NCBI GenBank assembly: GCA_003697105.1
Contig: RFFQ01000003.1
Coordinates: forward strand, 4,235-68,234
Source: Gemmatimonadota bacterium
GTDB lineage: Bacteria; 4572-55; J002
Length of the DNA: 64,000 nt
Direction: 5' to 3'
Part shown: piece after piece, positions 8,197-53,019 of the stretch
How the letters are laid out: each line of letters begins with the position of its first letter
How positions within the stretch are numbered: position 1 is the first letter of the stretch
Translations under genes and position numbers: made by a program
The notes under the pieces: model-generated
What the model was told of the DNA's origin: nothing
The model's database searches: none
The model's input: the letters and a program-made list of their open reading frames with translations, nothing else

Positions 8197-9210
8197 TCAT
8201 TTCAGCAAAATCATATACTTAGATGCCGTATAGCGTTCGGTTTCAAGTTGGTACATATAGAGACCACTACCCACCGGATGTCCTTGCTGATTCGTCCCAT
8301 CCCAGAAAACCGAGTATTCACCCGCCGGTTGTGTCGTTTCGAGTAAGGTCTTAATCAATTTTCCAGAAACATCATAAACACTCAATTTGAGATGGCTAGG
8401 GTGAGATAAATCATACGGGATTTGGGTTACCGGATTGAAAGGATTAGGGTAGTTTTGGTGCAATACATGTGTTGGAGGTATCGTAACACCATGATGAATT
8501 GCAACATCCGTTTGGAGATCAACATCAATTTTACGAGCTTGATATACTTCATGAGTGGTGTCATTTTGGATAAACACAACCACCGCTAAATTTTCGGCAT
8601 TCCAATCTTCGGCGAGGGTAAATGACCGGTCTATGGTTACCGATTCCCCGGCTTGTGAAATCGAAAGGGGTTCATTCGCCAATAAATCCCGCAAAACATG
8701 ATCAAACTGACGATTGAAATAGAAAAGTGAATCCTCAATGACCGCAAAATGGACAAAAACATTTGTTGAATCTATCGATTCTTCCAGAGTGACGGTAGCA
8801 GTTATCAAGCCTTCTGTAGCACCAATGGTAGCCCTTAAATCCAGTACCATTGGGCTTGGAATTCCCAACCGCGCTTGGACTTCCGGGAGATAAACATCAT
8901 AGATTGTTGGCCAAGCACCCAAAACGTGCCTTACACCGTCAAAATAGGTATTGGGCGTACCTTCTAGCCCGTAATACGCCACCCATCGTTCCGTACCTTC
9001 TGGGATTTCATAAATATCTTCAAAATGATATTTAATGGGTGCAACATTATATTCATCGAGCAACTGCTCGACCGCGGCATACGCGTATGTACATGTCGCT
9101 CACCACACCGCCGTTTGCATTTCGATCAACACCGTTCGCTCTGCCGAAAAACCGGTTTGACTGCTAAAGAACATAATGGACATAATCAAACACAAAATGA
9201 ATTTACGCAT
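8197..9210 (-). CDS. T9SS-sorted secreted thioredoxin-fold protein with an in-frame UGA at the CxxC nucleophile position (candidate selenoprotein; otherwise a disrupted gene)
   Basis: The ATG at 9210 lies 6 nt after an AAGGAG RBS. The product reads MRKFILCLIMSIMFFSSQTGFSAERTVLIEMQTAVW-[TGA]-ATCTYAYAAVEQLLDEYN, and continues in frame into the track ORF 8197..9063 without a frame change. The W-[U]-A-T-C element and a downstream YGLEGTPNTYFDG (cis-Pro) match the thioredoxin WCxxC...cis-Pro pattern. The C-terminus (NYPNPFNP ... LSVYDVSGKLIKTL ... GSGLYMYQL) is a T9SS C-terminal sorting domain. A palindrome (9078-9089) and a 6-bp-stem hairpin (9057-9072) lie 10-45 nt 3' of the UGA, inside the coding region. 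Confidence 0.5.
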
Positions 9211-9231
9211 GGTTGGCTCCTTATCTTTGAG

Positions 9232-10878
9232 TTACGACGCACAACAACTGAGTTTATTCACATCTTTTCCAAAGGTGATTGCCGCAAGCTTAATACCTTC
9301 AGAAAGCGTTAAATACGGGTGAAAAGTTGAAATAAGTTGCGTGACGGTAATACCAAATTTAATGGCTAACGCAACCTCCATAAGTAATTCACCACCCTCA
9401 GAAGCTAGGATTCTCGCCCCAATAAGCTGATCCGTATGTTTATCCCGAATAAGTTTGATGAAACCTCTGGTATCCCGAGCCGCTAAGGATCGAGGCACAT
9501 AAGATAAAGGTAAAACGGCGACATCGGCTTCCATTCCCTGTTCTTTGGCTTGTTTTTCATCGAGTCCGACACCGGCAACTTGGGGGTCAGTAAAGATCAC
9601 CCAAGGCAGCGCCGTATAATCTTGCCGGCGATTCGCGCCGGTAAGTGCATTTTCCGCCGCTAAAGCCCCCTCATAAGCGGCAGTATAAACAAACTGGTAT
9701 CCGCCAATCACATCCCCAGCCCCATAGATATGAGAAACGGTTGTTCGTAAAGTATCATCTACCTTTAAAAATCCGTTTTCATCTAAATCAACACCGGCAT
9801 TTTCGAGACCCAGACCGGTAGTATTTGGTCGGCGTCCGGTAGCAACCAGAAGATGTGATGCCGCAAACGTCGTTTCCTCATGGTTGACCCTTGCTGTGAT
9901 CGTGATCAAACCGTTCGATGATTGAGCGTGAGTTAAGGTAGCACCCGTAACCACCTGAATCCCTTCATCCTGAAGGTAACGGGTTAATTCGTCGGTTAAA
10001 TCGGCTGTTTCAGAGGGTAAAATACGAGATGAGCGTTGTAAAACCGTTACCTTTGTCCCCAATCGGGCAAACATTTGTGCCAGTTCCAAAGCAACGTAGC
10101 GACCCCCCAAAACAATTAATGATTCGGGTAATTCGTTTAACTCAAAAGCGGTTTCGTTTGTTAAATAATTACAGGTTTCAAGACCCGGTATCGGTGGTAT
10201 TGATGGCGCGGCGCCGGTAGCAATCAGTACTTTATCGGCTTTGACGCGTTCGCCATTGACTTCAACGGTATCTGAAGAAATGAATTTACCTGTACCTGTA
10301 ATATACCGGAAGTTGGGTAAATCAGAGACAACATCGGTATATTTCGCCTGTCTGAGGTTTTCCACCAACTCGGTTTTCTGTTGGATAATCGATTTAAAGT
10401 CCGTAACCCGGCTAGTCCCCTCAATACCCTGAAAGTGGTGATGGTTCGCCCGATAATGTGCCTCAGCCGCCCGAATTAACGTTTTAGAAGGCACACAACC
10501 CACATTCACACAGGTACCACCTATCGGGAGACCGTCGTTGATCAGGGTAACAGTCGCCCCCAGTTCATTAGCTTTTAATGCCGCTGAAAACGCCGCTGAA
10601 CCCCCTCCAATAATGACCAAATGTTGGCGGTGACCGTCACCCGTAAGTATATGGCTCGGATAACCCGCATCCGACACAACACTCGCTAGAGTGTCTGGAT
10701 GTGTCTTTTCAGCATCATATATCACCGTTGCCTGTTTATGGGCTAAATCGACCACAGCAGATTGCACCCCATCTACCGTTGCCAGTGCTTTTTCCACTTG
10801 CGAAGCACAGCTAGGACACGTTATACCTTCTACCTGTAAAATTGCACTTTGCTGGCGAGTCGTACAGCATGCTTCCAT
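9232..10878 (-). CDS. merA: Mercuric reductase MerA (N-terminal HMA domain plus pyridine-nucleotide disulfide oxidoreductase)
   Basis: N-terminal GITCPSCASQVEKAL heavy-metal-associated motif. Class-I redox-active disulfide GGTCVNVGCVPSK. FAD- and NAD-binding Rossmann segments. Diagnostic C-terminal vicinal cysteines (...KLSCCAS). Confidence 0.9.
   Translation of the reverse strand: MEACCTTRQQSAILQVEGITCPSCASQVEKALATVDGVQSAVVDLAHKQATVIYDAEKTHPDTLASVVSDAGYPSHILTGDGHRQHLVIIGGGSAAFSAALKANELGATVTLINDGLPIGGTCVNVGCVPSKTLIRAAEAHYRANHHHFQGIEGTSRVTDFKSIIQQKTELVENLRQAKYTDVVSDLPNFRYITGTGKFISSDTVEVNGERVKADKVLIATGAAPSIPPIPGLETCNYLTNETAFELNELPESLIVLGGRYVALELAQMFARLGTKVTVLQRSSRILPSETADLTDELTRYLQDEGIQVVTGATLTHAQSSNGLITITARVNHEETTFAASHLLVATGRRPNTTGLGLENAGVDLDENGFLKVDDTLRTTVSHIYGAGDVIGGYQFVYTAAYEGALAAENALTGANRRQDYTALPWVIFTDPQVAGVGLDEKQAKEQGMEADVAVLPLSYVPRSLAARDTRGFIKLIRDKHTDQLIGARILASEGGELLMEVALAIKFGITVTQLISTFHPYLTLSEGIKLAAITFGKDVNKLSCCAS
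10713..10776. repeat. HMA-module nucleotide repeat, copy A (in the merA 5' region)
   Basis: About 64 bp (cctgtttatgggctaaatcgaccacagcagattgcaccccatcta) recurs at about 10966-11031 at roughly 93% identity. Both copies encode IDGVQSAVVDLAHKQATV of an HMA domain. Confidence 0.7.
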
Positions 10879-10880
10879 TG

Positions 10881-11480
10881 TCAGTCTCCTTTATCGGTTA
10901 ATACTTTGGCAGAATATCCGGCCTTTGCGATCGCCTCAACGAGCTCGGCGGGATGGACGTGGCGATCATCATACGTCACCGTCGCCTGTTTATGGGCTAA
11001 ATCGACCACGGCAGATTGTACTCCATCTATTTCGATCAAAGCATGCTGGACATGTGCCACACATCCGGCGCAGGTCATACCTTCCACAGATAACGTGACC
11101 TGAGCAAACGAAAGGTTCGATTCCACCGTATCTACCGGTCGAACAAATGCGCCACTGTAATACGGAAAGGTCACTAATCCGATAATCACAGGTGCAAGCA
11201 CCCATAGAAGAATTTTATTGAGTTGGTGTGTTTTGGATGCGGTCTTGGTGTGACACCCACATGAATCTGCATTCTTTGGTTTGCGGTAAACAATGTAAAA
11301 CGCGGTGAGGAACAACCCAATGGTTAAACCGACAAAAAGAGGACGGTAGGGTTCTATCACACTGGCAAAACCCACACTACCAAACCCCAATAGCGTAACC
11401 GCCAACGGTAAAATACAACATGAGGAGGCGGCAACGGCGGCTACGACAGCACCGAGAATGGGAAGTTGGTCGAATTTCAT
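10881..11480 (-). CDS. merT: MerT-MerP fusion: mercuric ion transporter with C-terminal periplasmic HMA metallochaperone domain
   Basis: The first transmembrane helix carries the MerT Cys pair (ASSCCILPLAV), and a second Cys pair (DSCGCH) lies in the cytoplasmic loop. The C-terminus carries GMTCAGCVAHVQHAL, the MerP GMTCxxC motif. The gene is 2 nt from merA. Confidence 0.75.
   Translation of the reverse strand: MKFDQLPILGAVVAAVAASSCCILPLAVTLLGFGSVGFASVIEPYRPLFVGLTIGLFLTAFYIVYRKPKNADSCGCHTKTASKTHQLNKILLWVLAPVIIGLVTFPYYSGAFVRPVDTVESNLSFAQVTLSVEGMTCAGCVAHVQHALIEIDGVQSAVVDLAHKQATVTYDDRHVHPAELVEAIAKAGYSAKVLTDKGD
10966..11031. repeat. HMA-module nucleotide repeat, copy B (in the merT-merP fusion 3' region)
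   Basis: Near-identical to 10713-10776. It encodes the C-terminal MerP-like HMA domain of the MerT-MerP fusion. Confidence 0.7.
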
Positions 11481-11548: not shown

Positions 11549-11803
11549 TCACGATTGTCGTAACATCGTTGCTAAGGATTCTAGTTCATGTTCATGGGGG
11601 AGTCCAACAAGTACAACCGTTCCATTCACCACCAGAGAAGGAACTGCTTTCACGTCATATTGCGCGGCGAGAGCACAACAACTGCCATCCTTGCATTCTG
11701 AAGATCGGTGGACTTCAATTTCGACATCCGGAAAGTGATGATGAAGCCGTTGGAGCGTTTTGTCGCACAAGGGACACTCCGCACTAAAGAATTCAACCTT
11801 CAT
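11549..11803 (-). CDS. Small thioredoxin/glutaredoxin-like protein (CPLC redox motif)
   Basis: 84 aa: MKVEFFSAECPLCDK ... VPSLVVNG. It has a thioredoxin-like CxxC near the N-terminus and a cis-Pro-like VPS, placed between merR and merT. Confidence 0.55.
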   Translation of the reverse strand: MKVEFFSAECPLCDKTLQRLHHHFPDVEIEVHRSSECKDGSCCALAAQYDVKAVPSLVVNGTVVLVGLPHEHELESLATMLRQS

Positions 11804-11815
11804 CGTTAAGCCTCC

Positions 11816-12220
11816 TTAACTGGGAGGTTCAAGAGCCTCCAAAATCGGGCAATCACTTGTATTTTTACGATGTTCACAGCAGGTGACCAGCGTGGACAAG
11901 GTCTGTTTCATCCGCTGGAGAGACTGAATTTTCAGTTCAATATCCTGAATCTTTGCCTCTGCCAGACTCTTAACCGACTCACACGCCACATCCGCATGAA
12001 CCCGTAATGCCAGAAGTTCCGCGATTTCTTTGAGTGAGAAACCCAATTCTTGAGCATGTTTAATGAATCGAATTCGTTTCACGGTATCTGACGTGTACTG
12101 GCGATAACCTGACTCCGAACGTAACGGTTTCGGAAGGAGTTCTTGGCGTTCGTAGTAACGAATCGTCTGAATATTGACTTGGGCTTGTTTGGCTACTTTG
12201 CCAATGGTTAAATATTTCAT
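11816..12220 (-). CDS. merR: MerR-family Hg(II)-responsive transcriptional regulator
   Basis: N-terminal HTH (LTIGKVAKQAQVNIQTIRYYERQELL), a dimerisation helix, and C-terminal Cys residues (VACES ... TCCEH ... DCP) at the spacing of the MerR Hg-binding cysteines. It is co-directional with, and first in, the mer operon. Confidence 0.8.
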   Translation of the reverse strand: MKYLTIGKVAKQAQVNIQTIRYYERQELLPKPLRSESGYRQYTSDTVKRIRFIKHAQELGFSLKEIAELLALRVHADVACESVKSLAEAKIQDIELKIQSLQRMKQTLSTLVTCCEHRKNTSDCPILEALEPPS

Positions 12221-12236
12221 CGGATCACCACTTTAC

Positions 12237-12268
12237 AAAGTAAAGGTTATACTTAAGTATAGAGTCAA
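12237..12268 (-). promoter_or_regulatory. MerR-type promoter/operator: -35 TTGACT, 20-bp spacer containing a perfect 14-bp palindrome, -10 TACTTT
   Basis: The minus strand reads TTGACT-ctatacttaagtataacctt-TACTTT-(16 nt)-ATG(merR). The 19-20 bp spacer is over-long, and the palindrome TATACTTAAGTATA (12248-12261) sits between -35 and -10. This is the hallmark architecture of MerR-family activated promoters. A second dyad, CTTTAC-AAA-GTAAAG (12231-12245), overlaps the -10. Confidence 0.6.
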
Positions 12269-12447: not shown

Positions 12448-15400
12448 CTAGGTTACATCATGTTGAGAATGTTGAGAGATATTGAAATGAAATGTTGTCT
12501 CTTTAATCCAGCAATAGAGCGTGGGCACTACAAAGATGGTAATCACCACGACTAACATCCCACCAAATGTCGGGATTGCCATTGGCACCATGATGTCGGA
12601 CCCACGTCCGGTGGAGGTCAACACGGGCAACAGGGCGAGCACGGTTGTTGCCACGGTCATCAGTGCCGGGCGCACCCGGCGTTGGCCCGCTTCAATGGTG
12701 GCTTCCCGAATCGCATCGATGGATGCCGGAACGCGTTTGGCAAACGTCTGATCGAGATATGTAGCGATAATCACCCCATCGTCACTGGCAATACCAAACA
12801 ATGCCAAGAAACCAACCCACACCGCGACACTTAAATTGATCGGCTCAATCTGGAAAAGCTGGCGAAAGTCGATCCCAAAGAAGGAAAAATCCAAAAACCA
12901 GGACTGACCATACAGCCAAAGCAAAATAAACCCTCCAGACCACGCCACCAAAATCCCGGAGAAGACGAGGGCGGTCGTGGAAATCGACTTAAATTGAAAA
13001 TAGAGAATCAAAAAGATGATAAATAGCGCCACCGGTAGAATAACGGCCAGTTTTTTCTGTGCCCGAATCTGGTTTTCGTAACTACCGGCAAAGCGATAGC
13101 TCACACCGGCGGGTATCTCAAATTCGCCGCTTTCAATCTTCGCTTGCAGATAGGCTTGTGCCTGTTCGACCACATCGACTTCCGCAAACCCCGGCTTTTT
13201 ATCAAACGTGACATATCCGACTAAAAACGTATCTTCACTTTTGATCACCTGTGGACCCCGGACATATTGGATCTCTGCCAGTTGCCCCAGGGGAATCTGA
13301 GTACCTCCCACGGCGGCCACTAAAATGTCTTTCAGGTCTTCAATGTCGTCCCGCAATTCGCGGAGGTATCGAACCCGCACGGGATAGCGTTCGCGTCCTT
13401 CGACCGTCATACTGACCGGCTTGCCGCCAATAGCGGTCTCAATCACATCCTGAACCTGTTTGACATGGATACCGTACCGGGCGATTTTATCCCGGTCAAT
13501 ATGAATTTCCAGATACGGCTTACCGACAATCCGGTCTGCATTGACCGCCGCCGGCTCGATGGCGGGCACTTCCCGTAAAAATTGTTCGATCTGCAACGCC
13601 ACGGTTTCAATCGTTTTGAGATCGGGACCCTTGATTTTGACCCCCATCGGCGCTCGCATCCCGCTTTGCAACATAACAATACGGGTGGCAATCGGTTGTA
13701 ATTTAGGGGCTGAGGTCGTGCCGGGGATTTCCCCCGCCTTGACAATCTCATCCCAGATATCATCCGGGGATTGGATGCCCGTCCAGGCGCTCCGTCCCGG
13801 ATTCAGCGCGGGGTCTAGGGCCGGGCGCCATAACCGGAACGGCTGACCGTGTTCATCGGGGATTAACCGATTCTTTTCATCGCGCAGATACGTTCCCCGC
13901 ACTCGATATGGCTCACCGTCAGGGGCAAGTAAGGGCGTACCAGACACATCCCGAAAATAATCATTTTTAGTCCGGTCATATTTAAATCGCACCCGCCGCC
14001 CGTGCTCATCTCGTAAATATTCCGGTTTGTAGTTAATGATCGTCTCGATCATGGAGATCGGGGCGGGGTCAAGCGGAGTTTCTGCCCGGCCGAGTTTCCC
14101 CACCGCCTGTTCCACTTCCGGGATGGCATAAAACGCCCGGTCCTGGAGTTGTATCACGTCAAGTACCTCACCGATGGAAGCGTGCGGCATCGTGGTCGGC
14201 ATGTACAAAAACGAGCCTTCATCAAGCGGCGGCATAAACTCCTTACCCAGTCCCGGAAATTGGTGCAACACCACAGAAACCGGCTTCCAGCGCTTGACCG
14301 GCTGGGGCAACCAGCCAAACAGAGCATCAAAACCCAACCAGATCAGCCCTCCAAATAACACAATCAGCGCCGGAAGGCTCAAAAAAAGAATCTTATGGTG
14401 CAAACACCACCGTAAAATGGAGGGATACGCCCGTTGAAAAAGCAGAAAAAAGGTCAGAAAGCCGCCGAGGATCATCCCCACAAAAAGAGTGTTCCACAGC
14501 AAACCGCGTTCAACCCCCAAAGGTAGCCAGTGCCGGGTGAGTAAAATCAGAACTACCAAAACCACCAGATAATGGGTTAAGTAAGGTGACCATTTATACA
14601 GGTAAGAAAGCCACTTTTGGCGGGGTTGAGCGACAGGGCGGACGTCTTGAATAAAACCATTGATACCCATCAAGATCACCAACAACCCGATCCACAGATT
14701 CACCATAACGGCTAGGAAACATCCAAGCACTCCAATCAAACTATAGAACAGCCGCCGGACGTAAGCGCTACGCACCTTACCGGTAAATAACAGTTGCGCA
14801 AATGGCGGAATGATGGTCAACGCCACGATGATGGAGGCAAAAAGCGCAAACGTTTTGGTAAATGCCAGCGGCTTAAATAGCTTTCCTTCCGCCCCGATCA
14901 TGGTAAAGACCGGCAAAAAGCTGACAATAGTCGTCGAAACAGCCGTGAGTACCGCCGAACCAACCTCCGTTGATGCCCGGTAGATAACCTCCAGACGCGG
15001 TTCGTCGGGATCGGCTTCATCCAAGTGTTTGAGGATATTCTCACAAATGACAATCCCCATATCGACCATCGTCCCGATGGCAATCGCAATCCCGGACAGC
15101 GCAACAATGTTGGCATCGACTCCCGCATAGCGCATGGCAATGAAGCACATCAGCACGGCTAACGGGAGCAATCCGGAGATCAATATTGAACTACGTAAGT
15201 GCATCACCATCAGAATAACCACGATGATCGTAACCAGAATTTCGTCAGTGAGGGCACTTTCTAACGTGCCGAGGGTCTCATAGATCAAACCGGTACGATC
15301 ATAAAACGGGACAATGGTGACTTGGCTTACGGTACCATCAGCAAGTGTTTTTTTCGGTAAGCCGGGGGCGATTTCCGCAATTTTTTGCTTCACATTCTGG

Positions 15401-16362
15401 ATGGCTTCCAAGGGATTTTCGCCGTAACGCACCACGACCACCCCGCCAACGACTTCCGCCCCCTCTTTATCCAGTGCGCCCCGTCGTAGCGCAGGACCCA
15501 AACTGACATGCGCCACATTTTTGACCAGTACCGGCACCCCATCCACAGCTTTGACAACCGCTTTTTCCAGATCGGATAATGCCTTTACAAAACCAATCCC
15601 GCGGATTACATACTCCACTTTATTGATTTCGATGGTGCGAGCGCCGACATCCAAATTTGACATACGTACGGCATTAATCACGTCAGTAAGCGTGATGCCA
15701 TAAGCACGCATGGCATCGGGGTCCACATCAATTTGATACTCCTGCACAAAACCACCAATCGACGCCACTTCACTGACTCCTGCGGCAGATTGCAAGCCAT
15801 ATTTCACGTAAAAATCTTGAATGGTACGCAGTTCGTGCAAATCCCAACCGCCGGTCGGGTTTCCTTGCGGGTCGCGCCCTTCCAAGGTGTACCAAAAAAC
15901 TTGTCCCAGTGCGGTGGCATCCGGACCAAGACCCGGACGAACCTCCGGGGGCAACGTGTTGGGGGGAAGACTGCTCAGTTTCTCTAAAATTCGGGAACGA
16001 GACCAGTAGAACTCCACATCTTCATCAAAAATGACATAAATTGTTGAAAAACCGAACATGGAGTAACTCCGGATCGTCTTCACGCCGGGAATCCCGAGTA
16101 ACGCAACGGTCAACGGATATGTCACTTGATCTTCCATATCCTGCGGCGAACGTCCCATCCATTCCGTAAAGACAATCTGCTGATTTTCACCGATGTCTGG
16201 GATGGCATCTACGGGCACGGGGTCCCGGGGCAACCCCCCCAGTTGCCAATCAAAGGGAGCCGTCATCAATCCCCATCCGACAAAAAGGATGAGGACGAGG
16301 ATAACCACAAATTTATTTTCTAAGCAAAATCGAATCAGGGTATCTAAAGGTGATGTTTTCAT
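12448..16362 (-). CDS. Heavy-metal-efflux-type RND permease (CusA/CzcA family), extended 1304-aa form
   Basis: The N-terminus (LIRFCLENKFVVILVLILFVGWGLMTAPFDWQLGGLPRDPVPVDAIPDIGENQQIVFTEWMGRSPQDMEDQVTYPLT) matches HME-RND. It is about 250 aa longer than canonical CusA, with extra hydrophobic helices and a large periplasmic insertion (...YKPEYLRDEHGRRVRFKYDRTKND...). Confidence 0.8.
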   Translation of the reverse strand: MKTSPLDTLIRFCLENKFVVILVLILFVGWGLMTAPFDWQLGGLPRDPVPVDAIPDIGENQQIVFTEWMGRSPQDMEDQVTYPLTVALLGIPGVKTIRSYSMFGFSTIYVIFDEDVEFYWSRSRILEKLSSLPPNTLPPEVRPGLGPDATALGQVFWYTLEGRDPQGNPTGGWDLHELRTIQDFYVKYGLQSAAGVSEVASIGGFVQEYQIDVDPDAMRAYGITLTDVINAVRMSNLDVGARTIEINKVEYVIRGIGFVKALSDLEKAVVKAVDGVPVLVKNVAHVSLGPALRRGALDKEGAEVVGGVVVVRYGENPLEAIQNVKQKIAEIAPGLPKKTLADGTVSQVTIVPFYDRTGLIYETLGTLESALTDEILVTIIVVILMVMHLRSSILISGLLPLAVLMCFIAMRYAGVDANIVALSGIAIAIGTMVDMGIVICENILKHLDEADPDEPRLEVIYRASTEVGSAVLTAVSTTIVSFLPVFTMIGAEGKLFKPLAFTKTFALFASIIVALTIIPPFAQLLFTGKVRSAYVRRLFYSLIGVLGCFLAVMVNLWIGLLVILMGINGFIQDVRPVAQPRQKWLSYLYKWSPYLTHYLVVLVVLILLTRHWLPLGVERGLLWNTLFVGMILGGFLTFFLLFQRAYPSILRWCLHHKILFLSLPALIVLFGGLIWLGFDALFGWLPQPVKRWKPVSVVLHQFPGLGKEFMPPLDEGSFLYMPTTMPHASIGEVLDVIQLQDRAFYAIPEVEQAVGKLGRAETPLDPAPISMIETIINYKPEYLRDEHGRRVRFKYDRTKNDYFRDVSGTPLLAPDGEPYRVRGTYLRDEKNRLIPDEHGQPFRLWRPALDPALNPGRSAWTGIQSPDDIWDEIVKAGEIPGTTSAPKLQPIATRIVMLQSGMRAPMGVKIKGPDLKTIETVALQIEQFLREVPAIEPAAVNADRIVGKPYLEIHIDRDKIARYGIHVKQVQDVIETAIGGKPVSMTVEGRERYPVRVRYLRELRDDIEDLKDILVAAVGGTQIPLGQLAEIQYVRGPQVIKSEDTFLVGYVTFDKKPGFAEVDVVEQAQAYLQAKIESGEFEIPAGVSYRFAGSYENQIRAQKKLAVILPVALFIIFLILYFQFKSISTTALVFSGILVAWSGGFILLWLYGQSWFLDFSFFGIDFRQLFQIEPINLSVAVWVGFLALFGIASDDGVIIATYLDQTFAKRVPASIDAIREATIEAGQRRVRPALMTVATTVLALLPVLTSTGRGSDIMVPMAIPTFGGMLVVVITIFVVPTLYCWIKETTFHFNISQHSQHDVT

Positions 16363-16510
16363 GAGGTTACATCCTATACTGACAAGGTGATAAAATCCGG
16401 GTATAATTCCGTTTCGCTAACCGGTTTGACACCCACACGGCAGTGAATCATGCCAACCCCAAACGTAAAAAGTGGTAGCGCGGCACAACCCACCGTGCCA
16501 GCAAGTTTGA

Positions 16511-18712
16511 TTAGCGTAGCAGGATCAACGGCTGCTGATCGACCTGGTCGTCCACCTGAAGTTGCAACAGATAGAAGCCGCTCTTCACGGGCATTCCCTG
16601 TGAGTCAATCCCTCGCCAAATCAGGGAATAACGCCCTGCGGACTGGTGATACCGAAAAGATCGCCATACCAAGCGACCCGTAGCATCATATATGTTAAGA
16701 TACACACTTGCTGAGGTAGTGAGATCATAACAAATGGAGGTATGGGGATTGAAAGGGTTCGGGTAACTTGGAAGCAACCGGAATCTTGCCGGAGTCCCGA
16801 TGTTAGCCGGTGCCGGGTTAAGAGCAACCATCTCATCTTCAAACTGAAGAACCCGCAAGCCCGTCCCATAATTTCCAACCGTGACATAATCCCCGGAAAC
16901 AGAAACTCCCACCAATTGACCCGGCGTATTAAAAAAGCCGGCTTCTTCAATGTGGAAGGGGTCACTCACATCAAAAACAACAAGCCCATCCCAATTGCAG
17001 GCGGCATAGGCAAAATCCCCCACAACATCCACCTGCCAGACATAATCTTCAACCAGATGGTGTCCCAATTCCACCGGTTCTTGATCCTGTTGAACATCGT
17101 AAATACGCAACCCCCCCTCCATCGCGCAGACATACGCTAAATTGCCCTGCACCTGAACGTCCCGCGCCACGCCGGGCGTTGCGGTTGAGCTAATCTCTTG
17201 TGGCAGGGTCGGATCACTGACATCAATGATCTGCAAATAACCCGTTAGAAAATCCGGTTGAATGACTGCTAGATAAAGGCGGTCACCCGCTACATCTAAC
17301 CCAAAAGCGCGGTGATCCGGTGGTAACGGGTATGACCCAACTTCCTGTGGATTTGCCGGATCGGAAATATCAATCACCCGCACGCCCGCGGCATAAGCGG
17401 CAACATAGGCATAATCACCAGAGACATGAACATCCTTCGCCTGGTCCGGTAGGGCAACAGACCCGATCTCAACCGGAGCCGCGGGATCGCTGACATCAAT
17501 CAGATATAGGGCACTACCGGAATAATCGGGAGAATCTAACGTGAGATACGCCACCTGCCCTTCAACCGTCACACCCCAAGAGAAACCTTCCGCCTCAAAC
17601 TGGCCGGCAAGTCTGGGATGTGTGGGGTCAGCCAAGTCATAAATCAGCAGTCCACCGAAATAATCTGAGACATACGCTATTTGATCCCGGGTAAGCACAT
17701 CCCAGGTATAAATCGGCGGCGTATATTGGGCAACTTCCTGAGGCGGAACGGGTTGAGAGTACCAGAACACCCCATCTTGATAATCGGTAAAAACAAGAAG
17801 GTCATTTGTTACGTCAAGTCCGCGGGGTTCCGGTGTGTTTAACAAACCAACGGGATTAATATTCTGAAAATCTGAGATGTCTAGGAGATGGATTCCATCT
17901 GTTTGGGTTGAAACATAGGCGGCCGTTTCTCCCACCACAAGCTCGGTAGCACCGGGCAGATGGTAAAATCCCACTTCCAGAAGTAATTCTGGATTGGAAA
18001 AATCCACGATAGAGACACCCAATGCCGCATCTGCAATAAATACAAAGGAGTCTCTCACAAAAAGGGAGCGGGGAGTTTCCAATTGGGAAAAAACACCGAT
18101 TTCCACCGGCATCTCAGGTGTAGTGAGGTCAAAAAGGTATAAGAATCCTCCGTCACCATCCGCTGCGAGAACAAAAAGCCGCTCATTTTGGGCGCTCACC
18201 CGCCCGACCGGTTCCGCCAGCGACAGGTAATCCAAAACCTGCGGATTCGCCGGATTGGAAACGTCCAAGATCGCCACATTTTGTTGTTCCACAACATAGG
18301 CGTACTGCCCGGCAACAGCGACATCAAAAATACGAGCTTCTGGATTAAAGGCGCCTACTTCCACCGGATTCAGCGGGTCTGAAACATCCACAATCCGCAA
18401 ACCGGCACTTTGGGCGGCAATATAGAGCAAATGACCCTCTTGAACCATTGCGGTCGCACGCTGATTGAATGCCGGGTCGTGAAAGGTCGCTACCGATCGG
18501 GGTTGAAGCGGGTCGCTGAAATCAATCACCGAGAGTAAAAAATCGTTAGTGACATCCGCCAGCACATACGCATACGGGTCATCTACAATCACGGAATGCG
18601 GTTGTCCGAGGGTGAGTTGCCCGACCGGCGTAACATTCCAACGGTCTTGGGCAACACCCACGGATGCGGCTATCATCAATAAAATCAACATACTAGAAAA
18701 ACAAAAACGCAT
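16511..18712 (-). CDS. Secreted LVIVD-repeat beta-propeller protein with T9SS C-terminal sorting domain
   Basis: Signal peptide MRFCFSSMLILLMIAASVGVAQ. Repeats of the type (Y)AYVA..GLR(I/V)(I/V)D(V/I)SDP.NP occur more than 10 times (LVIVD repeat). The C-terminus (YPNPFNPHTSICYDL ... LNIYDATGRLV ... GFYLLQL) is a T9SS C-terminal domain. It sits between the membrane-fusion and RND genes. Confidence 0.7.
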   Translation of the reverse strand: MRFCFSSMLILLMIAASVGVAQDRWNVTPVGQLTLGQPHSVIVDDPYAYVLADVTNDFLLSVIDFSDPLQPRSVATFHDPAFNQRATAMVQEGHLLYIAAQSAGLRIVDVSDPLNPVEVGAFNPEARIFDVAVAGQYAYVVEQQNVAILDVSNPANPQVLDYLSLAEPVGRVSAQNERLFVLAADGDGGFLYLFDLTTPEMPVEIGVFSQLETPRSLFVRDSFVFIADAALGVSIVDFSNPELLLEVGFYHLPGATELVVGETAAYVSTQTDGIHLLDISDFQNINPVGLLNTPEPRGLDVTNDLLVFTDYQDGVFWYSQPVPPQEVAQYTPPIYTWDVLTRDQIAYVSDYFGGLLIYDLADPTHPRLAGQFEAEGFSWGVTVEGQVAYLTLDSPDYSGSALYLIDVSDPAAPVEIGSVALPDQAKDVHVSGDYAYVAAYAAGVRVIDISDPANPQEVGSYPLPPDHRAFGLDVAGDRLYLAVIQPDFLTGYLQIIDVSDPTLPQEISSTATPGVARDVQVQGNLAYVCAMEGGLRIYDVQQDQEPVELGHHLVEDYVWQVDVVGDFAYAACNWDGLVVFDVSDPFHIEEAGFFNTPGQLVGVSVSGDYVTVGNYGTGLRVLQFEDEMVALNPAPANIGTPARFRLLPSYPNPFNPHTSICYDLTTSASVYLNIYDATGRLVWRSFRYHQSAGRYSLIWRGIDSQGMPVKSGFYLLQLQVDDQVDQQPLILLR

Positions 18713-18777
18713 GGATACCCCCATTAGTAGAAATGAATTTCACTATATACACACTTCGCCTTATCTTAACTTCATAA

Positions 18778-20550
18778 CTAAGGGATTATGGTTTCAATTT
18801 GTTCCCCACAGCGGAGCATCTGCGCACCAAAATAGGGATTTTCCACACCCGGTTTATTTTGCAACCAATCCGCCCCCTGGTCCCCGAATGCCATCGGGCA
18901 ATGAAAAACCAACACCGGTTGAGTATCGCTAATGTCAAATTGTTTCGCCACGGAAATCAGTGTCGTGGAGAGTTTCTCAAACTTCGTACGGGCAATGTCG
19001 ATAACAATGGCACGCGCTATACCGGCGGCGTTATCTTTTAGCACTGGTAAATGGCTCATCCATAGATGGTGGGCGTCATCTTGTAACACGCTCATATCCA
19101 CGTTTTCCAAAGCACGAGTCATGGCGTTTCCAGCGGCTTTGGCGTCCTCTAAATTATCATGACTGAGGGCTTGCTGTATCTCAAAATAGGCGGAAAACAC
19201 GGCATCCAATTGGCGCTGAAACACGGGTGGTACTTCCAGCAATGAGGGGGGAGATGATGCCGCTACCGGAGTCCTCGCCACCGGCATCTCCCCATGCTGA
19301 TGGGCGGACGAGGTTGCACCCCCTTCTGGATTCATCATACTCGGTTTGGCAAGGATTTGCAACGCACTATCAATCTTGAAGTTACCATAAGTGACAACGT
19401 GTTCACCTTCACCGAGTCCTCGCTTGACAATGTAGAAATCACCCACGCGGTCACCCAACACGATTTCGCGCCCTTCAAACACACCTTCTTGTTCGGGGTC
19501 TGCCACATACACAACGGCACGTTTCCCGGTAATCAAGGGTGCTGAAGCGGGGATAACCAGTGGGGGTCTTGTCGTGCTGGGATCGGCTTGGAGGAGGGCC
19601 CGCACGAACATTTCCGGCTTGAGCTTACCCTGTGGATTCGGAACACTCACCCGGAAGTTCACTGTGCGCGTGTGAGGATTTAAAATGGGGTCAATAAATT
19701 CAATATTCCCTGTAAATGACTCACCGGGATAGGCTTCGGTGGTCAATTCTACCGGCAACCCTTCATGAATCCAGGATAAATCGGATTCATACGCCTCCAG
19801 CCAGACCCACAAATTGGAGAGGTCGGCTAAGGTGTAAATTTCGGTGCCCGTGTTGACATACATGCCTTCCACCGCATTCTTATGGGTCACGATACCGCTG
19901 GCGGGCGCTAACACCGTAATATGGTCTTCCGCCGAGCCTCGATCTTGGATGGCTTGAATCTGAGCGGCGGAGAGTCCAAATAGTTCTAGTTTTTTCCGGC
20001 TGGCATTCACCAGCACGTCAGACTTCAACCGTAATGCTTGCAAATACTCTTCTTGCAAGGTCAACAGCTTCGGGCTGTAAACATCCGCCACCGGTTGACC
20101 GTTGTTGACGGTGGTACCGGTAAAATCAATATGTAATTTGTCAATCCGGCCCGGGATCCAGGCGGTGATTTTGGTCAGGCGGGTTTCATCCACATCCAAT
20201 TTACCGACCAGCCGTAGTTCTGCCGACAGCGCGCGGCGTTCCACGGGGGAGGTTTGAATGTGTGCCAATTTGATCGCCGCCGGTGAGAGTTTAATCTGGC
20301 GGGGATTGTCACTTTGATGGTCATCACCGGTGCTTACGGGGATCAGTTCCATGGCACAAATGGGGCACAACCCCGGCTTGGGTTGGCGGATTTGGGGGTG
20401 CATGGAGCAGGTCCATTCCGTGACCGTGGCTGTGGATTCCGGCGCTGATATGGACGGTGCCGGACTCCCACCACCGCGGACGATAAAACCGGTGGTGAAT
20501 GCCAAACCAACAAAAACCAGCAAAATTGCCCATTGTTTGCGGGTAAACAT
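18778..20550 (-). CDS. RND efflux membrane-fusion protein (CusB-like) with N-terminal heavy-metal-binding domain and C-terminal four-helix (DUF3347-like) extension
   Basis: The start was refined to the ATG at 20550, which has a GAGGTGA RBS and begins the transmembrane segment MFTRKQWAILLVFVGLAF. The N-terminal TEWTCSMHPQIRQPKPGLCPICAMEL matches the CusB-type heavy-metal-binding domain. The centre is the biotin-lipoyl/beta-barrel core of a membrane-fusion protein. The C-terminal 150 aa (LLEVPPVFQRQLDAVFSAYFEIQQAL ... AHHLW) is an additional helical metal-binding-like domain. Confidence 0.8.
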   Translation of the reverse strand: MFTRKQWAILLVFVGLAFTTGFIVRGGGSPAPSISAPESTATVTEWTCSMHPQIRQPKPGLCPICAMELIPVSTGDDHQSDNPRQIKLSPAAIKLAHIQTSPVERRALSAELRLVGKLDVDETRLTKITAWIPGRIDKLHIDFTGTTVNNGQPVADVYSPKLLTLQEEYLQALRLKSDVLVNASRKKLELFGLSAAQIQAIQDRGSAEDHITVLAPASGIVTHKNAVEGMYVNTGTEIYTLADLSNLWVWLEAYESDLSWIHEGLPVELTTEAYPGESFTGNIEFIDPILNPHTRTVNFRVSVPNPQGKLKPEMFVRALLQADPSTTRPPLVIPASAPLITGKRAVVYVADPEQEGVFEGREIVLGDRVGDFYIVKRGLGEGEHVVTYGNFKIDSALQILAKPSMMNPEGGATSSAHQHGEMPVARTPVAASSPPSLLEVPPVFQRQLDAVFSAYFEIQQALSHDNLEDAKAAGNAMTRALENVDMSVLQDDAHHLWMSHLPVLKDNAAGIARAIVIDIARTKFEKLSTTLISVAKQFDISDTQPVLVFHCPMAFGDQGADWLQNKPGVENPYFGAQMLRCGEQIETIIP

Positions 20551-20677
20551 GTAAATCACCTCACAGTTAGGAAGTTTAAAATAGGTCACAACGACCCCAA
20601 GAGAAGGCACAGCGAATCCAATACCGTCCTCATAGAGCCGGGCGAATTAAAGAAAATCACCTAAACTGAGAGGGGAA

Positions 20678-25933: not shown

Positions 25934-26129
25934 GTTGAACCCACTCCATTTTCGAGTTATCAGATACCGTATGGTCACATTTGTTCTTAAAAAAACAACT
26001 GAGGCACTCCTTGCGGAATAGCTCGGTGCAGCCCTTTGAGCCTTTGTGCGCCAGCAATTGAACACCCAACCAACTGATCATCAATAGCGGAATCAGGACT
26101 CCCGCCAAAAGGAAATGGTACAGCATCAA
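25926..26129 (-). CDS. NqrM-like small membrane protein (single transmembrane helix plus four-Cys cluster)
   Basis: 67 aa: one transmembrane helix (LLAGVLIPLLMISWLGVQLL) followed by GCTELFRKECLSCFFKNKCDH. Its start overlaps rnfA by 4 nt and its stop lies 2 nt before the apbE start. The position after the rnf genes and before apbE mirrors nqrM in Na+-NQR loci. Confidence 0.45.
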   Translation of the reverse strand: MMLYHFLLAGVLIPLLMISWLGVQLLAHKGSKGCTELFRKECLSCFFKNKCDHTVSDNSKMEWVQHD

Positions 26130-26713
26130 CTACCACCCCCTAAGCCGGCAAAGCCCATGAACGCCATGGAAAGAATACCCCCCACCAACAGCACAATGGC
26201 AATCCCTTTGACAATACTCGGTGTATCTGCCAGATCAAGCTCCTCGCGGATACCCGCCATCAGCACCAGCGCCAAGGAAAACCCCGCCCCAGCACCCAGC
26301 GCAAAGAAGATAGACTGAACAAGATTATACTCCCGGCTGGTCTGAAAGAGTGCCAACCCTAAAATAGAACAGTTGGTGGTAATCAGCGGTAAGAAAATCC
26401 CTAATGCCCGAAAGAGTGCCGGGCTGAATTTTTTGATGAACATTTCCACTAATTGAACAGAGGAGGCAATCACAACGATATACGAAATCAAGCGCAAATA
26501 GGGTGCACCTATCGCTTCCAGCGCAATGTTTATCCCAAAAGCACACAGGGAACTGACCAACATCACAAATGTGACAGCCATGCCCATCCGCGAAGCCGTC
26601 TCAATCTTACCAGAAACACCCAAAAAGGGGCAAATTCCGAGAAAATAACTCAAAACAAAGTTATTGATCAAGGCGGCACTGATAAAAATAAATCCGGGCG
26701 AATCTACACTCAT
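26126..26713 (-). CDS. rnfA: Rnf complex subunit A (RnfA/NqrE family)
   Basis: 195-aa polytopic membrane protein with the characteristic RnfA sequence (NNFVLSYFLGICPFLGVS ... LPLITTNCSILGLAL). Confidence 0.85.
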   Translation of the reverse strand: MSVDSPGFIFISAALINNFVLSYFLGICPFLGVSGKIETASRMGMAVTFVMLVSSLCAFGINIALEAIGAPYLRLISYIVVIASSVQLVEMFIKKFSPALFRALGIFLPLITTNCSILGLALFQTSREYNLVQSIFFALGAGAGFSLALVLMAGIREELDLADTPSIVKGIAIVLLVGGILSMAFMGFAGLGGGS

Positions 26714-27330
26714 ACCTCACTCCTTTTCACGGATCGTTCCCGTAGCCATGCAAACAACATCAACCAGCCCCCGAGTACAAAAAAAGCGCCGCCGGGCAAG
26801 ACCATAATCACCCACGGTTCAAAATTGGCAGGCATGACCCGGAAACCGGCAAAGGTACCGCTACCGAGGACTTCGCGCACCACACCGAGACTCAACACCG
26901 CTATGGTAAATCCGAAACCCATCCCCAGCGCATCCAAAATCGATTTGAATACCCCGTTTTTGGAAGCGAAAGCCTCTGCTCGGCCCAGAATGATGCAATT
27001 TACCACAATCAGCGAAATAAACGCGCCCAACGCTTTATGAACTTCCACACTGATTGCCTGAATGAGGTATTCCACAACGGTCACAAAGGTGGCAATAATC
27101 AAAATATAGGTAGCAATCCGTACCTGTTTGGGGATCAGCTTACGAATCAAGGAAACCGAGATATTGGACATCACCAGTACAAATGTGGTTGCTAAACCCA
27201 TTGCCAGTGCATTAATGACAGAATTTGTCACCGCCAGCACCGGACACATTCCCAGCGCCATCACAAAAACGGGGTTTTCCTTCCAGATACCTTTCAAAAA
27301 AACATCCATGTTTTGCGGTTCTGCGGTCAT
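26710..27330 (-). CDS. rnfE: Rnf complex subunit E (RnfE/NqrD family)
   Basis: 206 aa: ENPVFVMALGMCPVLAVTNSVINALAMGLATTFVL ... VNCIILGRAEAFA matches RnfE. Confidence 0.85.
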   Translation of the reverse strand: MTAEPQNMDVFLKGIWKENPVFVMALGMCPVLAVTNSVINALAMGLATTFVLVMSNISVSLIRKLIPKQVRIATYILIIATFVTVVEYLIQAISVEVHKALGAFISLIVVNCIILGRAEAFASKNGVFKSILDALGMGFGFTIAVLSLGVVREVLGSGTFAGFRVMPANFEPWVIMVLPGGAFFVLGGWLMLFAWLRERSVKRSEV

Positions 27331-27339
27331 TTTTACCTC

Positions 27340-28044
27340 TCAATTTGCGGGGAAATCGGCCGTTTTCAACTGATCCAGATGGCGAGCAATGATGGGAATC
27401 ACTTTCTCAGTACTGCTTCTGAGAATTTTGGAAACCGCGGTAGAGGAAATGGTCGCTCCCGTAATCGTATCAATCTGCCAAGGTTTATTCTTTTCCCCCG
27501 GCTTGACCCACTCAATAGGGTGAGTAATACGACTCTTATCCGGCGTCAGTGATACATCTAATGCTTCAAAATTCTTCAAAAAATGCGGGTCTTTTTCAAT
27601 TTTATCACCCAGACCGGGGGTTTCCTTACTTTCCAGCACTTTCAACCCGATGATCGCCTCTTTTTCCGGTGAATAGCCATATACTAACCGGATCAACTCC
27701 TGAAAGCCTTGCCCGCTGGCGGCTACAGCGACACCCATCAAGTGATGGTCTTCCCCGTAACAGGCATAAATTTGGGCATTCATTGCCGCTTCACCGGTGA
27801 CTTCCACTAAATTGGAATCTTCAATTTTATAGGCGATCTTGTGCGTCGCACCTTTGATCACCTCATTAAAAAGTGCTTTTTCCAGATACACCGCTTTGTT
27901 TTTATTGATAACCGGTAGGGTGAGCTGGTACGTCAGAACGATTAAAATTCCAGCTAAAAAACCGACCCCACCCATAGCGGCAATCATGTGGAAACTACTT
28001 GCCTGCGGAACTTCTGAAATAGGTTGTGTTTGGATTTCTGCCAT
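27340..28044 (-). CDS. rnfG: Rnf complex subunit G (FMN-binding, RnfG/NqrC family)
   Basis: 234 aa with an N-terminal transmembrane anchor and the covalent-FMN attachment motif TITGATISS. Confidence 0.8.
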   Translation of the reverse strand: MAEIQTQPISEVPQASSFHMIAAMGGVGFLAGILIVLTYQLTLPVINKNKAVYLEKALFNEVIKGATHKIAYKIEDSNLVEVTGEAAMNAQIYACYGEDHHLMGVAVAASGQGFQELIRLVYGYSPEKEAIIGLKVLESKETPGLGDKIEKDPHFLKNFEALDVSLTPDKSRITHPIEWVKPGEKNKPWQIDTITGATISSTAVSKILRSSTEKVIPIIARHLDQLKTADFPAN

Positions 28045-28048
28045 GACC

Positions 28049-28363
28049 TCAACCTACCGTTGTCTGTTTGATCAATGCCACATGATACGGGAACAGTTCA
28101 CCCGTCATAATTCCTCGGGTGATTGCGGGGTCTTGGTTCATAAAGGCTTCTGCCGCTTCATCAGTTTCCGCCTCAAAGATCACAATCCCAAACGCATGTT
28201 TTGCCGCATTCAGGGTTCGACCGGCTAAAATTACCGTTCCGGCATCACAATGTGTTTTTAAGTGATTAAAATGATCCGTAATAATTTGATTGTCAGCTTC
28301 CGTCCATGCCGAATCATCATGTAACCGCGGAATCAACGAAAGTTTATACAGATACTGGTTCAT
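28049..28363 (-). CDS. YciI-like (Dabb-fold) small protein inserted in the rnf operon
   Basis: 104 aa: MNQYLYKLSLIPRLHDDSAWTEADNQIITDHFNHLK ... has a YCII-related domain pattern. It overlaps the rnfD stop by 4 nt. Confidence 0.55.
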   Translation of the reverse strand: MNQYLYKLSLIPRLHDDSAWTEADNQIITDHFNHLKTHCDAGTVILAGRTLNAAKHAFGIVIFEAETDEAAEAFMNQDPAITRGIMTGELFPYHVALIKQTTVG

Positions 28364-29382
28364 TGGGTCTCCTTCACCGCCCCGTAAATTCGGGGTTGGG
28401 TCAATCGATTAATGATCGGGGTAGCGGCATTCATCAATAAGATGGAATACATGACGCCTTCCGGCAAACCGCCAAACTCCCGGATGACAATCACCAAAAT
28501 TCCGATTCCGATGCCAAAAATCCAGCAACCGAGCGGTGTTACCGGCGATGTTACCATATCGGTTGCCATAAAGACCGCTCCCAGCACCAATCCTCCCGAA
28601 AGCAGATGAAAGATCGCCGGTGGAAACGCCTCTGGGTTCAGAAGATGCAGTACAGACGCTAAAATAAAAACTGTGGCAAAAATGCTGACCGGAATCCGCC
28701 AGTTAAACAGGTTCCGCACCGCCAGATACAACCCCCCCATCAAAATAACAACGGCGCATGTCTCCCCTAAAGACCCCGCGGTATTGCCAAGAAAGAGTTC
28801 CATCATACCGGTCGGTTGGTTACCCCACTTCATCATTGCTAGCGGAGTTGCGGCGGTCGTGGCATCAATGCCGGTACTGGTCATAAATGGTAGCGCAAAA
28901 TTTGCCCCGCGTACCTCCCAAAAACCACTAAAATTGCCTTGTGGACTCCACGTCGTCAGAGAAACCGGGAAAGCGGCTTGCAGAAAAGCACGCCCGACCA
29001 ATGCCGGGTTGAACACATTATAGCCAATGCCACCAAAAATCAACTTTCCCAGCCCAATGGAAGCAACCCCACCGACAAATGCCATCCATAACGGTATCCC
29101 CGGGGGTAAAGTTAATGCCAGTAGAATTCCGGTAATCATGGCACTCCCGTCCCGAATGGTACGTTGGGTAAAAACCCATTCGGTTAAGATCGCTCCAGCC
29201 ACACATGCCCCGGTCACCAGCAGAGCACTAATTCCAAAATAGTACGTCGCTGCCAACACCACCGGAACAAGGGTAAAGACAACCTGCCACATAATAAACG
29301 GAGTAGAGGTTGCATCCTTCAAAAACGGCGATGTCGAAAGCAATAAAGGTTGTGTTTTCATAAGGCTTATCCTGCATTCCAC
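28360..29382 (-). CDS. rnfD: Rnf complex subunit D (RnfD/NqrB family)
   Basis: 340-aa polytopic membrane protein (TPFIMWQVVFTLVPVVLAATYYFG ... GGIGYNVFNPALVGRAFL) typical of RnfD. Confidence 0.85.
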   Translation of the reverse strand: MECRISLMKTQPLLLSTSPFLKDATSTPFIMWQVVFTLVPVVLAATYYFGISALLVTGACVAGAILTEWVFTQRTIRDGSAMITGILLALTLPPGIPLWMAFVGGVASIGLGKLIFGGIGYNVFNPALVGRAFLQAAFPVSLTTWSPQGNFSGFWEVRGANFALPFMTSTGIDATTAATPLAMMKWGNQPTGMMELFLGNTAGSLGETCAVVILMGGLYLAVRNLFNWRIPVSIFATVFILASVLHLLNPEAFPPAIFHLLSGGLVLGAVFMATDMVTSPVTPLGCWIFGIGIGILVIVIREFGGLPEGVMYSILLMNAATPIINRLTQPRIYGAVKETQ

Positions 29383-29431
29383 AAGACGTCATTTATCATT
29401 ACGTCATTCATCATTGCCCACTGCCAACTAT

Positions 29432-52362: not shown

Positions 52363-52376
52363 AAGGAGATAGAACG

Positions 52377-52925: not shown

Positions 52926-52928
52926 GCA

Positions 52929-53012
52929 TTAGGATTTAGGAATTAGGGATTCAGGATTTAGGACTCAGGATTTAGGGTTTCCTAACTCCTAATCCCTAAT
53001 TCCGAATCAGGA
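52929..53012. repeat. Intergenic tandem heptamer repeats (consensus AGGATTT, 7 copies) plus inverted copies forming a long imperfect palindrome before the hoxH RBS
   Basis: AGGatttAGGaattAGGgattcAGGatttAGGactcAGGatttAGGgtttcc is followed by its inverted form cctaactcctaatccctaattccgaatc. The arms GGAATTAGGGATT and AATCCCTAATTCC can pair as a stem of at least 13 bp. The element ends 4 nt before AGGAGGaaatcATG of hoxH. Confidence 0.55.
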
Positions 53013-53019
53013 GGAAATC

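Follow-up and report, generated by a model that had tools for sequence, protein, structure and literature searches.

A candidate Omp28-related selenoprotein gene at the end of a mercury resistance operon in a hot-spring metagenome-assembled genome

The read-through gene and its in-frame TGA codon

The DNA analyzed here is a stretch of 64,000 nucleotides (the window) of the contig RFFQ01000003.1 (positions 4,235 to 68,234) from the assembly GCA_003697105.1, labeled as a Gemmatimonadota bacterium, and the gene under study is a putative selenocysteine (Sec) encoding gene that comprises 337 codons plus the stop (positions 8197-9210). Positions are those of the window, and the gene, like the rest of the mer operon described below, is located on the minus strand. 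The gene starts with an ATG codon (9208-9210) preceded by a Shine-Dalgarno sequence AAGGAG that can be read directly at 9217-9222, with a 6-nt spacer. Residues 1-23, MRKFILCLIMSIMFFSSQTGFSA (9142-9210), are predicted to constitute a signal peptide, as read by eye and from the way in which they align with those of the homologues, with the cleavage drawn before an E residue. The frame then runs into a TGA at codon 37 (9100-9102), the proposed Sec codon, in the context VLIEMQTAVW-TGA-ATC. The N-terminal product up to this point reads MRKFILCLIMSIMFFSSQTGFSA-ERTVLIEMQTAVW (36 codons), and the signal peptide is encoded solely 5' of the TGA. The frame continues open for 300 codons, ATCTYAYAAVEQ ... 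MILLK, until a TAA stop at 8197-8199, the TGA being the single in-frame stop of the read-through gene. An initial annotation, made from the letters of the sequence, had already pointed out the ATG at 9210, the AAGGAG ribosome binding site, the signal peptide and the lone TGA, and all of them are present. Its proposal that the frame continues into a 288-aa open reading frame (ORF) carrying a type IX secretion system (T9SS) sorting domain has been confirmed as well, with a TIGR04183 match above the cutoff; this ORF is started by a TTG.

The evidence from Pfam, NCBIfam, sequence profiles and a structural model, detailed here and in the next section, therefore leads to the following domain order for the read-through gene: a signal peptide, a thioredoxin (Trx)-like domain with the motif U37-A-T-C40, an Omp28-type beta-sandwich and a T9SS C-terminal domain. 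The Trx-like domain spans approximately residues 24-105 (8896-9141) and includes P86 (8953-8955), an invariant residue that is the candidate cis-Pro. Cys40, encoded by a TGT codon (9091-9093), would be the resolving Cys of the UxxC motif and is invariant across the family. The Pfam Omp28 domain (PF11551) matches residues 78-232 (8515-8979) with 51.9 bits, for a gathering threshold of 34.9. The T9SS type A C-terminal sorting domain (FlgD_ig / Por_Secre_tail) occupies residues 254-337 (8200-8451); TIGR04183 reaches 30.8 bits (cutoff 23) and Pfam FlgD_ig 46.4 bits (cutoff 27), and Por_Secre_tail, with 24.2 bits, stays slightly under its cutoff of 27. No genes of the T9SS machinery were seen among the genes of the 64-kb window.

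A mechanical scan of the window for TGA codons flanked by open frame did not render any other convincing case, and thus this is its sole TGA-split gene. TGA is the terminator of 12 of the 40 long open frames, indicating that the standard genetic code is used; a recoded genetic code was discarded for the same reason.

The same TGA is found in three assemblies, i.e., the 89.9-kb contig of the NCBI metagenome-assembled genome (MAG) (locus tags D6675_) to which the window belongs, a JGI contig (L001) and a Logan assembly (L002) of SRR7905024, a run from the Jinata Onsen hot-spring metagenome. L002 represents a distinct haplotype, with one single-nucleotide polymorphism (SNP), A to G at position 9090, that yields the change Thr41Ala four codons 3' of the TGA. 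Its presence in all three assemblies and in both haplotypes excludes a one-off error of assembly.

Relationship with thioredoxin-fold and Omp28-related proteins

When the read-through product was aligned with 12 full-length homologues (about 30% identity), the TGA column was occupied in all of them by a Cys, the first one of an invariant CxxC. A hydrophobic strand comes before this motif, and a Pro that is also invariant (residue 86) comes after it. The consensus of about 100 family members around this site is E-x-F-T-G-T-W-C-x-x-C-P. Both the 36 codons located 5' of the TGA and the 300 codons located 3' of it align with the homologues, and the family-invariant residues C40, P86, E159, V172 and R174 are kept downstream of the TGA.

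A profile of the N-terminal domains of the family matches over its first 100 positions, approximately, the protein HBP35 (5y1a; E 1.9e-7), the DUF1223 protein Atu2684 (2axo; E 4.7e-7) and the MJ0307 thioredoxin (1fo5; E 1.7e-6), and its second half matches Omp28 of P. gingivalis (2r2c). An AlphaFold model built on the exact 300 residues that follow the TGA, and thus devoid of strand beta-1 and of the W-U pair, has a pLDDT of 87, and its top PDB match is again HBP35 (Foldseek E 5e-10; TM-score 0.55 over the full length). The protein thus shows the strand, the W-C/U-x-x-C motif (expected at the N-terminus of a helix) and the downstream candidate cis-Pro of a thioredoxin fold, together with similarity to solved structures having this fold. 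The proposal of the initial annotation that the UGA lies exactly at the nucleophilic first Cys of a thioredoxin-fold CxxC is upheld by the Cys column of the homologues, where the coincidence holds for every full-length sequence, by relatives that carry a TGA (see below), by the existence of a UxxC family and by the fold match to HBP35.

The best NCBIfam match of the read-through protein is NF045500, 'Omp28-related selenoprotein', with 78.9 bits (E 4.8e-22). This model corresponds to the 'hypothetical protein GOS_C', with a UxxC motif and one Sec, credited to Zhang and Gladyshev (2008) in a review table (2026, PMC13188914). GOS_C was described in an ocean survey as a protein whose fold is Trx-like and in which the UxxC is conserved, having 74 Sec sequences and 312 Cys homologues, with a SECIS-like element (selenocysteine insertion sequence) 3' of the UGA, and no function was assigned to it (Zhang and Gladyshev, 2008, PMC2398784). 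The full-length homologue with the best score in our search (P0002) is a Cys form that reaches 228.6 bits with NF045500, above its cutoff of 200, and that also has a T9SS tail. Two other Cys forms (P0003 and P0013) do not match NF045500.

TGA-containing relatives in other genomes

The motif F-T-G-T-W-[TGA]-x-x-C-P was back-translated and used to scan one genome per GTDB species. The scan rendered 16 loci, compared with about four expected by chance according to an estimate from the pattern degeneracy. Fifteen of them (L004-L012 and L014-L019) are intact Omp28-type genes in which a signal peptide is followed by the motif with its TGA and by 286-787 further codons that bear the family motifs YH.GD ... 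YPT..FDG, except one that lies on a fragmentary contig and is stopped by a second TGA after 52 codons. Their genomes belong to Bacteroidales, Lentimicrobiaceae, WOR-3, Planctomycetota and unclassified MAGs. NF045500 was the top NCBIfam model for all seven of these relatives that were scored (48-83 bits), in every case under the cutoff, and no fewer than five of these seven proteins end in a T9SS tail.

In a local BLAST with the N-terminal domain of the window protein, TGA-containing genes took the first nine places (97-79 bits), and the highest score of a Cys form was 78 bits. A protein search using the N-terminal domain alone returned just the self match. Since the closest matches are TGA genes, the UGA is most simply explained as an inherited trait of a Sec-bearing clade and not as a fresh nonsense mutation.

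These relatives also change the view of what is particular in this gene. The initial annotation had considered a Sec-containing protein exported by the T9SS as an unusual combination, and this does not hold: the tail is found in at least five of the seven Sec relatives scored and in P0002, and the selenoprotein type has been known since 2008. Neither the exchange of Sec and Cys at the CxxC of the Trx fold nor the T9SS tail is out of the ordinary in the Omp28-related family. A literature search pairing Omp28 with selenoprotein gave no match, and we did not find a discussion of the combination of Sec and T9SS in the parts of the literature that were consulted. What is new is the placement of the gene as the terminal gene of a mer operon, its most distinctive feature, which the initial annotation had overlooked.

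The seven relatives scored reach just 48-83 bits versus a cutoff of 200, and thus the current annotation probably truncates these TGA-containing genes. With TGA genes in at least 15 species genomes and every scored one below the cutoff, NF045500 probably under-detects Omp28-type selenoproteins.

Candidate SECIS element

Downstream of the TGA there is a hairpin located at 9055-9072 (GUCGAGC-AGUU-GCUCGAU), which we propose as the candidate bacterial SECIS. It has a 7-bp stem, whose outermost pair is G-U, a free energy of -9.5 kcal/mol and a pair probability of about 0.97. The hairpin extends from +31 to +48, counted from the U of the UGA, and its loop begins 34 nt past the A of the UGA. The criteria of bSECISearch are an apical loop at 16-37 nt from the UGA and a G among the first two bases of this loop. 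A second, smaller hairpin (CGCG-UAUGC-CGCG; 9073-9085; -3.5 kcal/mol) adjoins the first one; its place is that of the post-UGA hairpin in the relatives, and it could contribute to a composite SECIS. The predicted fold of the 62 nt that follow the UGA consists of an outer stem, the small CGCG hairpin and the 7-bp hairpin.

To calibrate these values we used 1965 in-frame positions in the window's own genes. A perfect hairpin as good as this one was found at 3.2% of these sites, and at 1.9% when the loop was also required to lie 16-37 nt from the codon and to have a G as its first or second base. The stability of the whole segment is modestly unusual (z = -1.9), 10 of 200 shuffled sequences being equally stable. 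The hairpins that follow the TGA in the 15 relatives have energies comparable with that of the window hairpin.

The initial annotation had placed two elements in this region. The hairpin with an AGUU loop does exist 3' of the UGA, but its stem has 7 bp instead of 6 and it lies at +31 to +48. The palindrome CAUACGCGUAUG also exists, at +14 to +25, but it is unstable (+1.0 kcal/mol; pair probability 0.001) and irrelevant as an RNA structure, and it was thus rejected as a SECIS. The SNP of the L002 haplotype lengthens this palindrome to GCAUACGCGUAUGC, whose stability is still just -2.4 kcal/mol. Folding the region therefore yielded a SECIS-like hairpin at 9055-9072, but not a match to a SECIS family of Rfam around the site, either at gathering thresholds or at E<=10. 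Given this negative result, and since no close orthologue was found that could be used for covariation, the SECIS evidence is supportive but not decisive.

The putative Sec gene is the last gene of a mer operon

Five genes, merR, trx, merTP, merA and, in the last place, the putative Sec gene, run in the same direction and are separated by gaps of 12, 68, 2 and 21 nt. The first gene of the operon encodes a MerR-family regulator (11816-12220), and it is followed by a gene encoding an 84-aa Thioredoxin_3-type protein with a CPLC motif (11549-11803), and by a gene encoding a MerT-MerP fusion transporter (10881-11480). This fusion is a Cys form, with CC in the first transmembrane segment and GMTCAGC in its HMA domain. 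The merA gene (9232-10878) encodes a mercury(II) reductase (TIGR02053, 574.7 bits; cutoff 454), and its stop codon (9232-9234) is located 21 nt 5' of the ATG of the Sec gene. No terminator-like site was found in the four intergenic gaps of the operon. A MerR-type promoter/operator can be read directly 5' of merR (12238-12268), composed of TTGACT, a 19-nt spacer and TTACTT, and its spacer holds the perfect dyad TATACTT/AAGTATA (12248-12261). The Sec gene thus shares its direction with merA, merT and merR, forms a tight row with them and lies in an operon headed by a MerR-type operator, as corresponds to a component of a mer operon.

The region located upstream of the mer operon (12448-20610, minus strand) is also related to metals. 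It encodes a CusA/CzcA-type pump (12448-16362) and a CusB-like adaptor (18778-20610), and between these two genes of a heavy-metal resistance-nodulation-division (RND) efflux system there is a gene (16511-18724) encoding a 737-aa LVIVD/choice-of-anchor-B protein with a T9SS tail, which represents a second T9SS cargo in the metal-resistance cluster.

One of the Cys-form relatives (P0006; locus L020 of GCA_040751955.1) has as its neighbors a DUF6029 gene and one of the AhpC/thioredoxin-like type, and an MbnB/HvfC-type cluster is located close by. Such surroundings, related to redox processes and metals, could have a bearing on the function of the family.

Evaluation of the alternative explanations

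Taking together the elements described above, we conclude, with an estimated probability of about 0.8 and on sequence grounds, that this is a genuine Sec-encoding gene whose product belongs, as a divergent member, to the Omp28-related (GOS_C-type) Trx-fold selenoproteins, with a U-x-x-C active site. Several observations weigh against it. The genes selA, selB, selD and that of tRNA-Sec were not found in about 82 kb, i.e., the 64-kb window plus some 18 kb of flanks taken from other assemblies, where no tRNAs were found either. The members of Sec-prone families encoded in the window, i.e., a type III sulfide:quinone reductase (SQR) and the NiFe hydrogenase subunits, are all Cys forms. The NF045500 score of 78.9 bits lies under the curated cutoff of 200. 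The stem of the candidate SECIS starts at +31, farther from the UGA than in most of the Sec relatives (+11 to +21), and there is the failure to match Rfam already mentioned. No close orthologue was found by protein search in genome and metagenome collections, and hence none for SECIS covariation. Concerning the mer context, no match to a mer protein was found within the 8-kb loci of the Sec relatives (L004-L019), and no mer genes lie beside the two Cys relatives examined (P0006 and P0011).

Part of these observations would fit a pseudogene, in which a Cys codon (TGC or TGT) had changed to TGA, or in which a former Sec gene persisted in a lineage devoid of Sec decoding, so that translation would end after 36 residues. 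A TGA is in fact one substitution away from a Cys codon, and the missing Sec machinery in the 82 kb examined, the Cys forms of the neighboring proteins from Sec-prone families and the lack of an Rfam SECIS match point in the same direction. Nevertheless, such a lesion would have fallen on the very codon where 15 relatives from other genomes, the closest ones, have a TGA, and it would have left 300 remaining codons without any further lesion and with the family-invariant residues intact. Moreover, the TGA is kept in two haplotypes and is followed by a hairpin that is better than expected by chance. We consider for these reasons that a pseudogene is improbable.

Far less credit deserves a second alternative, i.e., that the TGA derives from a sequencing or assembly error, or that it is read by a standard tRNA (Trp or Cys). 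The sequence certainly comes from a MAG, and bacteria are known to read through UGA at a low level by means of near-cognate tRNAs. However, the codon does not differ among the three assemblies, which include a distinct haplotype, TGA behaves as an ordinary stop in the window, and the precedent in the family for a TGA at this site is Sec.

Finally, it is very unlikely that the locus contains two separate genes, one for a peptide of 36 aa and another, with TTG 9063 as its start, for a protein of 288 aa. Only the latter is annotated in GenBank (RMH74262.1, 8197-9063, named 'T9SS C-terminal target domain-containing protein'), and the NCBI, JGI and Logan gene callers all predict it (the last two along with the 36-aa ORF). 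However, the 288-aa product would lack the signal peptide, strand beta-1 and the active-site motif and yet carry a secretion tail that requires prior export through the Sec translocon, no Shine-Dalgarno sequence precedes TTG 9063, and each residue encoded by the 36 upstream codons finds its counterpart in the N-terminal part of the homologues. The 288-aa GenBank annotation is almost certainly a gene-calling artefact, and consequently the version now deposited is a protein without its signal peptide and its active site.

Proposed function of the selenoprotein

From the elements of the operon, the domains of the protein and the standard bacterial Sec pathway we infer how Sec would actually be inserted, how the product would be exported and how it could be linked to mercury. 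Transcription would proceed from the MerR-type promoter in an Hg(II)-dependent manner; the expression of the Sec gene in response to Hg(II) is most likely, because it closes a merR-trx-merTP-merA operon that has an operator of the MerR type. During translation, SelB loaded with Sec-tRNA(Sec) would bind a hairpin located 3' of the UGA, that at 9055-9072 being the best candidate, and codon 37 would be decoded as Sec, as it occurs in the standard pathway. The resulting 337-aa precursor would be exported by the Sec translocon by means of its N-terminal signal peptide, and the T9SS would then take the protein across the outer membrane through the C-terminal sorting domain, leaving it attached to the surface or released, as its domains suggest. 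In this way, the Trx-like domain would display the selenolate/thiolate pair U37/C40 outside the cell.

Regarding the role of this pair, it can be speculated by analogy that it serves for the capture of Hg(II) at the surface, where it would be equivalent to the CxxC of MerP but in a high-affinity Sec/Cys version, or else that it maintains surface thiols in the reduced state under mercury stress. Sec variants have been reported for the mercury-handling proteins MerT, MerP and HgcA/B, and for this reason we favor a function in Hg(II) capture or thiol protection, an argument that is drawn from one operon. A more detailed proposal would be that of a MerR-controlled, Hg-induced surface selenoprotein in which U37/C40 captures Hg(II) or organomercurials and then sequesters them or passes them to MerTP and MerA; this is possible but, on the whole, rather unlikely.

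The placement in a mer operon is, in any case, the one feature that could give a function to the Omp28-related family, and it offers two testable activities, i.e., Hg(II) binding or protection of surface thiols. If the proposed role were true, it would be the first functional assignment for the abundant GOS_C/Omp28-related selenoproteins, and it would represent a use of Sec for metal capture, and not for redox catalysis, in an exported protein.

Other genes encoded in the window

Nearly all the large ORFs of the window have been annotated. Apart from the mer operon and the Cus/Czc-type RND system, they encode sensor kinases, a transglutaminase-like protein, Rnf components, several 2-oxoacid:ferredoxin oxidoreductases, a Hox-type NiFe hydrogenase and the type III SQR. 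The run of genes at 28.3-32.6 kb encoding proteins of 340, 451 and 596 aa, considered as a candidate for the Sec machinery, was discarded, since the products correspond to RnfD, RnfC and a DASS transporter.

The SQR gene (59688-60920, minus strand) encodes a 410-aa protein that matches NF049943, the 'selenoprotein subtype', with 670.9 bits (cutoff 525). It was rejected as a second selenoprotein, since it contains no in-frame TGA, ends with TAA and has a Cys at the candidate site (..HANCFIE..), and hence it lends no support to Sec decoding. NF049943 would thus mislabel this Cys-form SQR as a selenoprotein. The Hox-type bidirectional NiFe hydrogenase is encoded on the plus strand (49802-54465) and consists of a NuoE/NuoF fusion, HoxU and two subunits, the small one VhuG-like and the large one VhuA-like; these genes did not show any in-frame TGA.

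The rnfC, rnfD and rnfG genes are located on the minus strand at 27340-30787, within the region 26126-30787, and are adjoined by two ORFs (26126-27330). The rnfB gene (41062-41925, minus strand) lies about 10 kb away from the other rnf genes. In its vicinity there are a gene for a 'ferredoxin' of 769 aa and several 2-oxoacid:ferredoxin oxidoreductase genes, one of which is an unusual beta-alpha fusion (45276-47402). The presence of Rnf and 2-oxoacid:ferredoxin oxidoreductase genes suggests an anaerobic, ferredoxin-based metabolism.

As to the origin of the contig, the label given to the MAG by NCBI is 'Gemmatimonadetes bacterium'. However, this phylum is not named in the text of the paper on Jinata Onsen, which reports seven Calditrichaeota MAGs, and the sorting-domain matches are mostly from Calditrichaeota, Marinimicrobia and Zixibacteria. 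On both accounts, the phylum label of NCBI may be wrong.

Comparison with known systems

The MerP/MerT-family selenoproteins (NCBIfam NF045683 and NF041115), which appear in GOS as 'mercuric transport protein MerP' and 'putative mercuric transport protein', provide a precedent for the replacement of Cys by Sec in the metal-binding motifs of mercury-handling proteins. MerP has a two-residue chalcogen motif outside the cytoplasm, as is proposed for the window protein. However, the folds are unrelated, since those selenoproteins consist of an HMA domain or of the MerT membrane protein, and the MerTP protein encoded in the operon of the window is a Cys form; it is just the position in the operon that points to a MerP-like role for the window protein.

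HBP35 of Porphyromonas gingivalis (5y1a) is the best PDB match of the profile, and it combines a Trx-like domain, a beta-sandwich and a T9SS C-terminal domain in a protein exported to the surface. Unlike the window protein, with which it shares 16% identity, HBP35 has a Cys instead of a Sec, its PDB entry names it a hemin-binding protein, and it has no mercury context.

The 15 TGA-containing relatives share with the window gene the TGA at the identical position of the motif, the upstream signal peptide, the T9SS tail in at least five of seven and the sub-cutoff NF045500 scores. They differ in that they are just 26-33% identical to the window protein, many of them being larger multi-domain proteins (500-825 aa), and in that their hairpins are nearer to the UGA and they have no mer genes within their 8-kb loci.

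With regard to the NF045500/GOS_C selenoproteins themselves, the window protein scores under the cutoff and is about 27-34% identical to P0002, a member of this family. Its motif is Q-T-A-V-W-U-A-T-C-T, in contrast to the F-T-G-T-W-U-x-x-C-P type of the family, and it is encoded in the mer operon of a hot-spring MAG, whereas GOS_C comes from marine plankton. Nevertheless, both have in common a Trx-like fold followed by an Omp28-type domain, a UxxC motif with the Sec in the first position, the existence of Sec/Cys homologue pairs and a hairpin 3' of the UGA.

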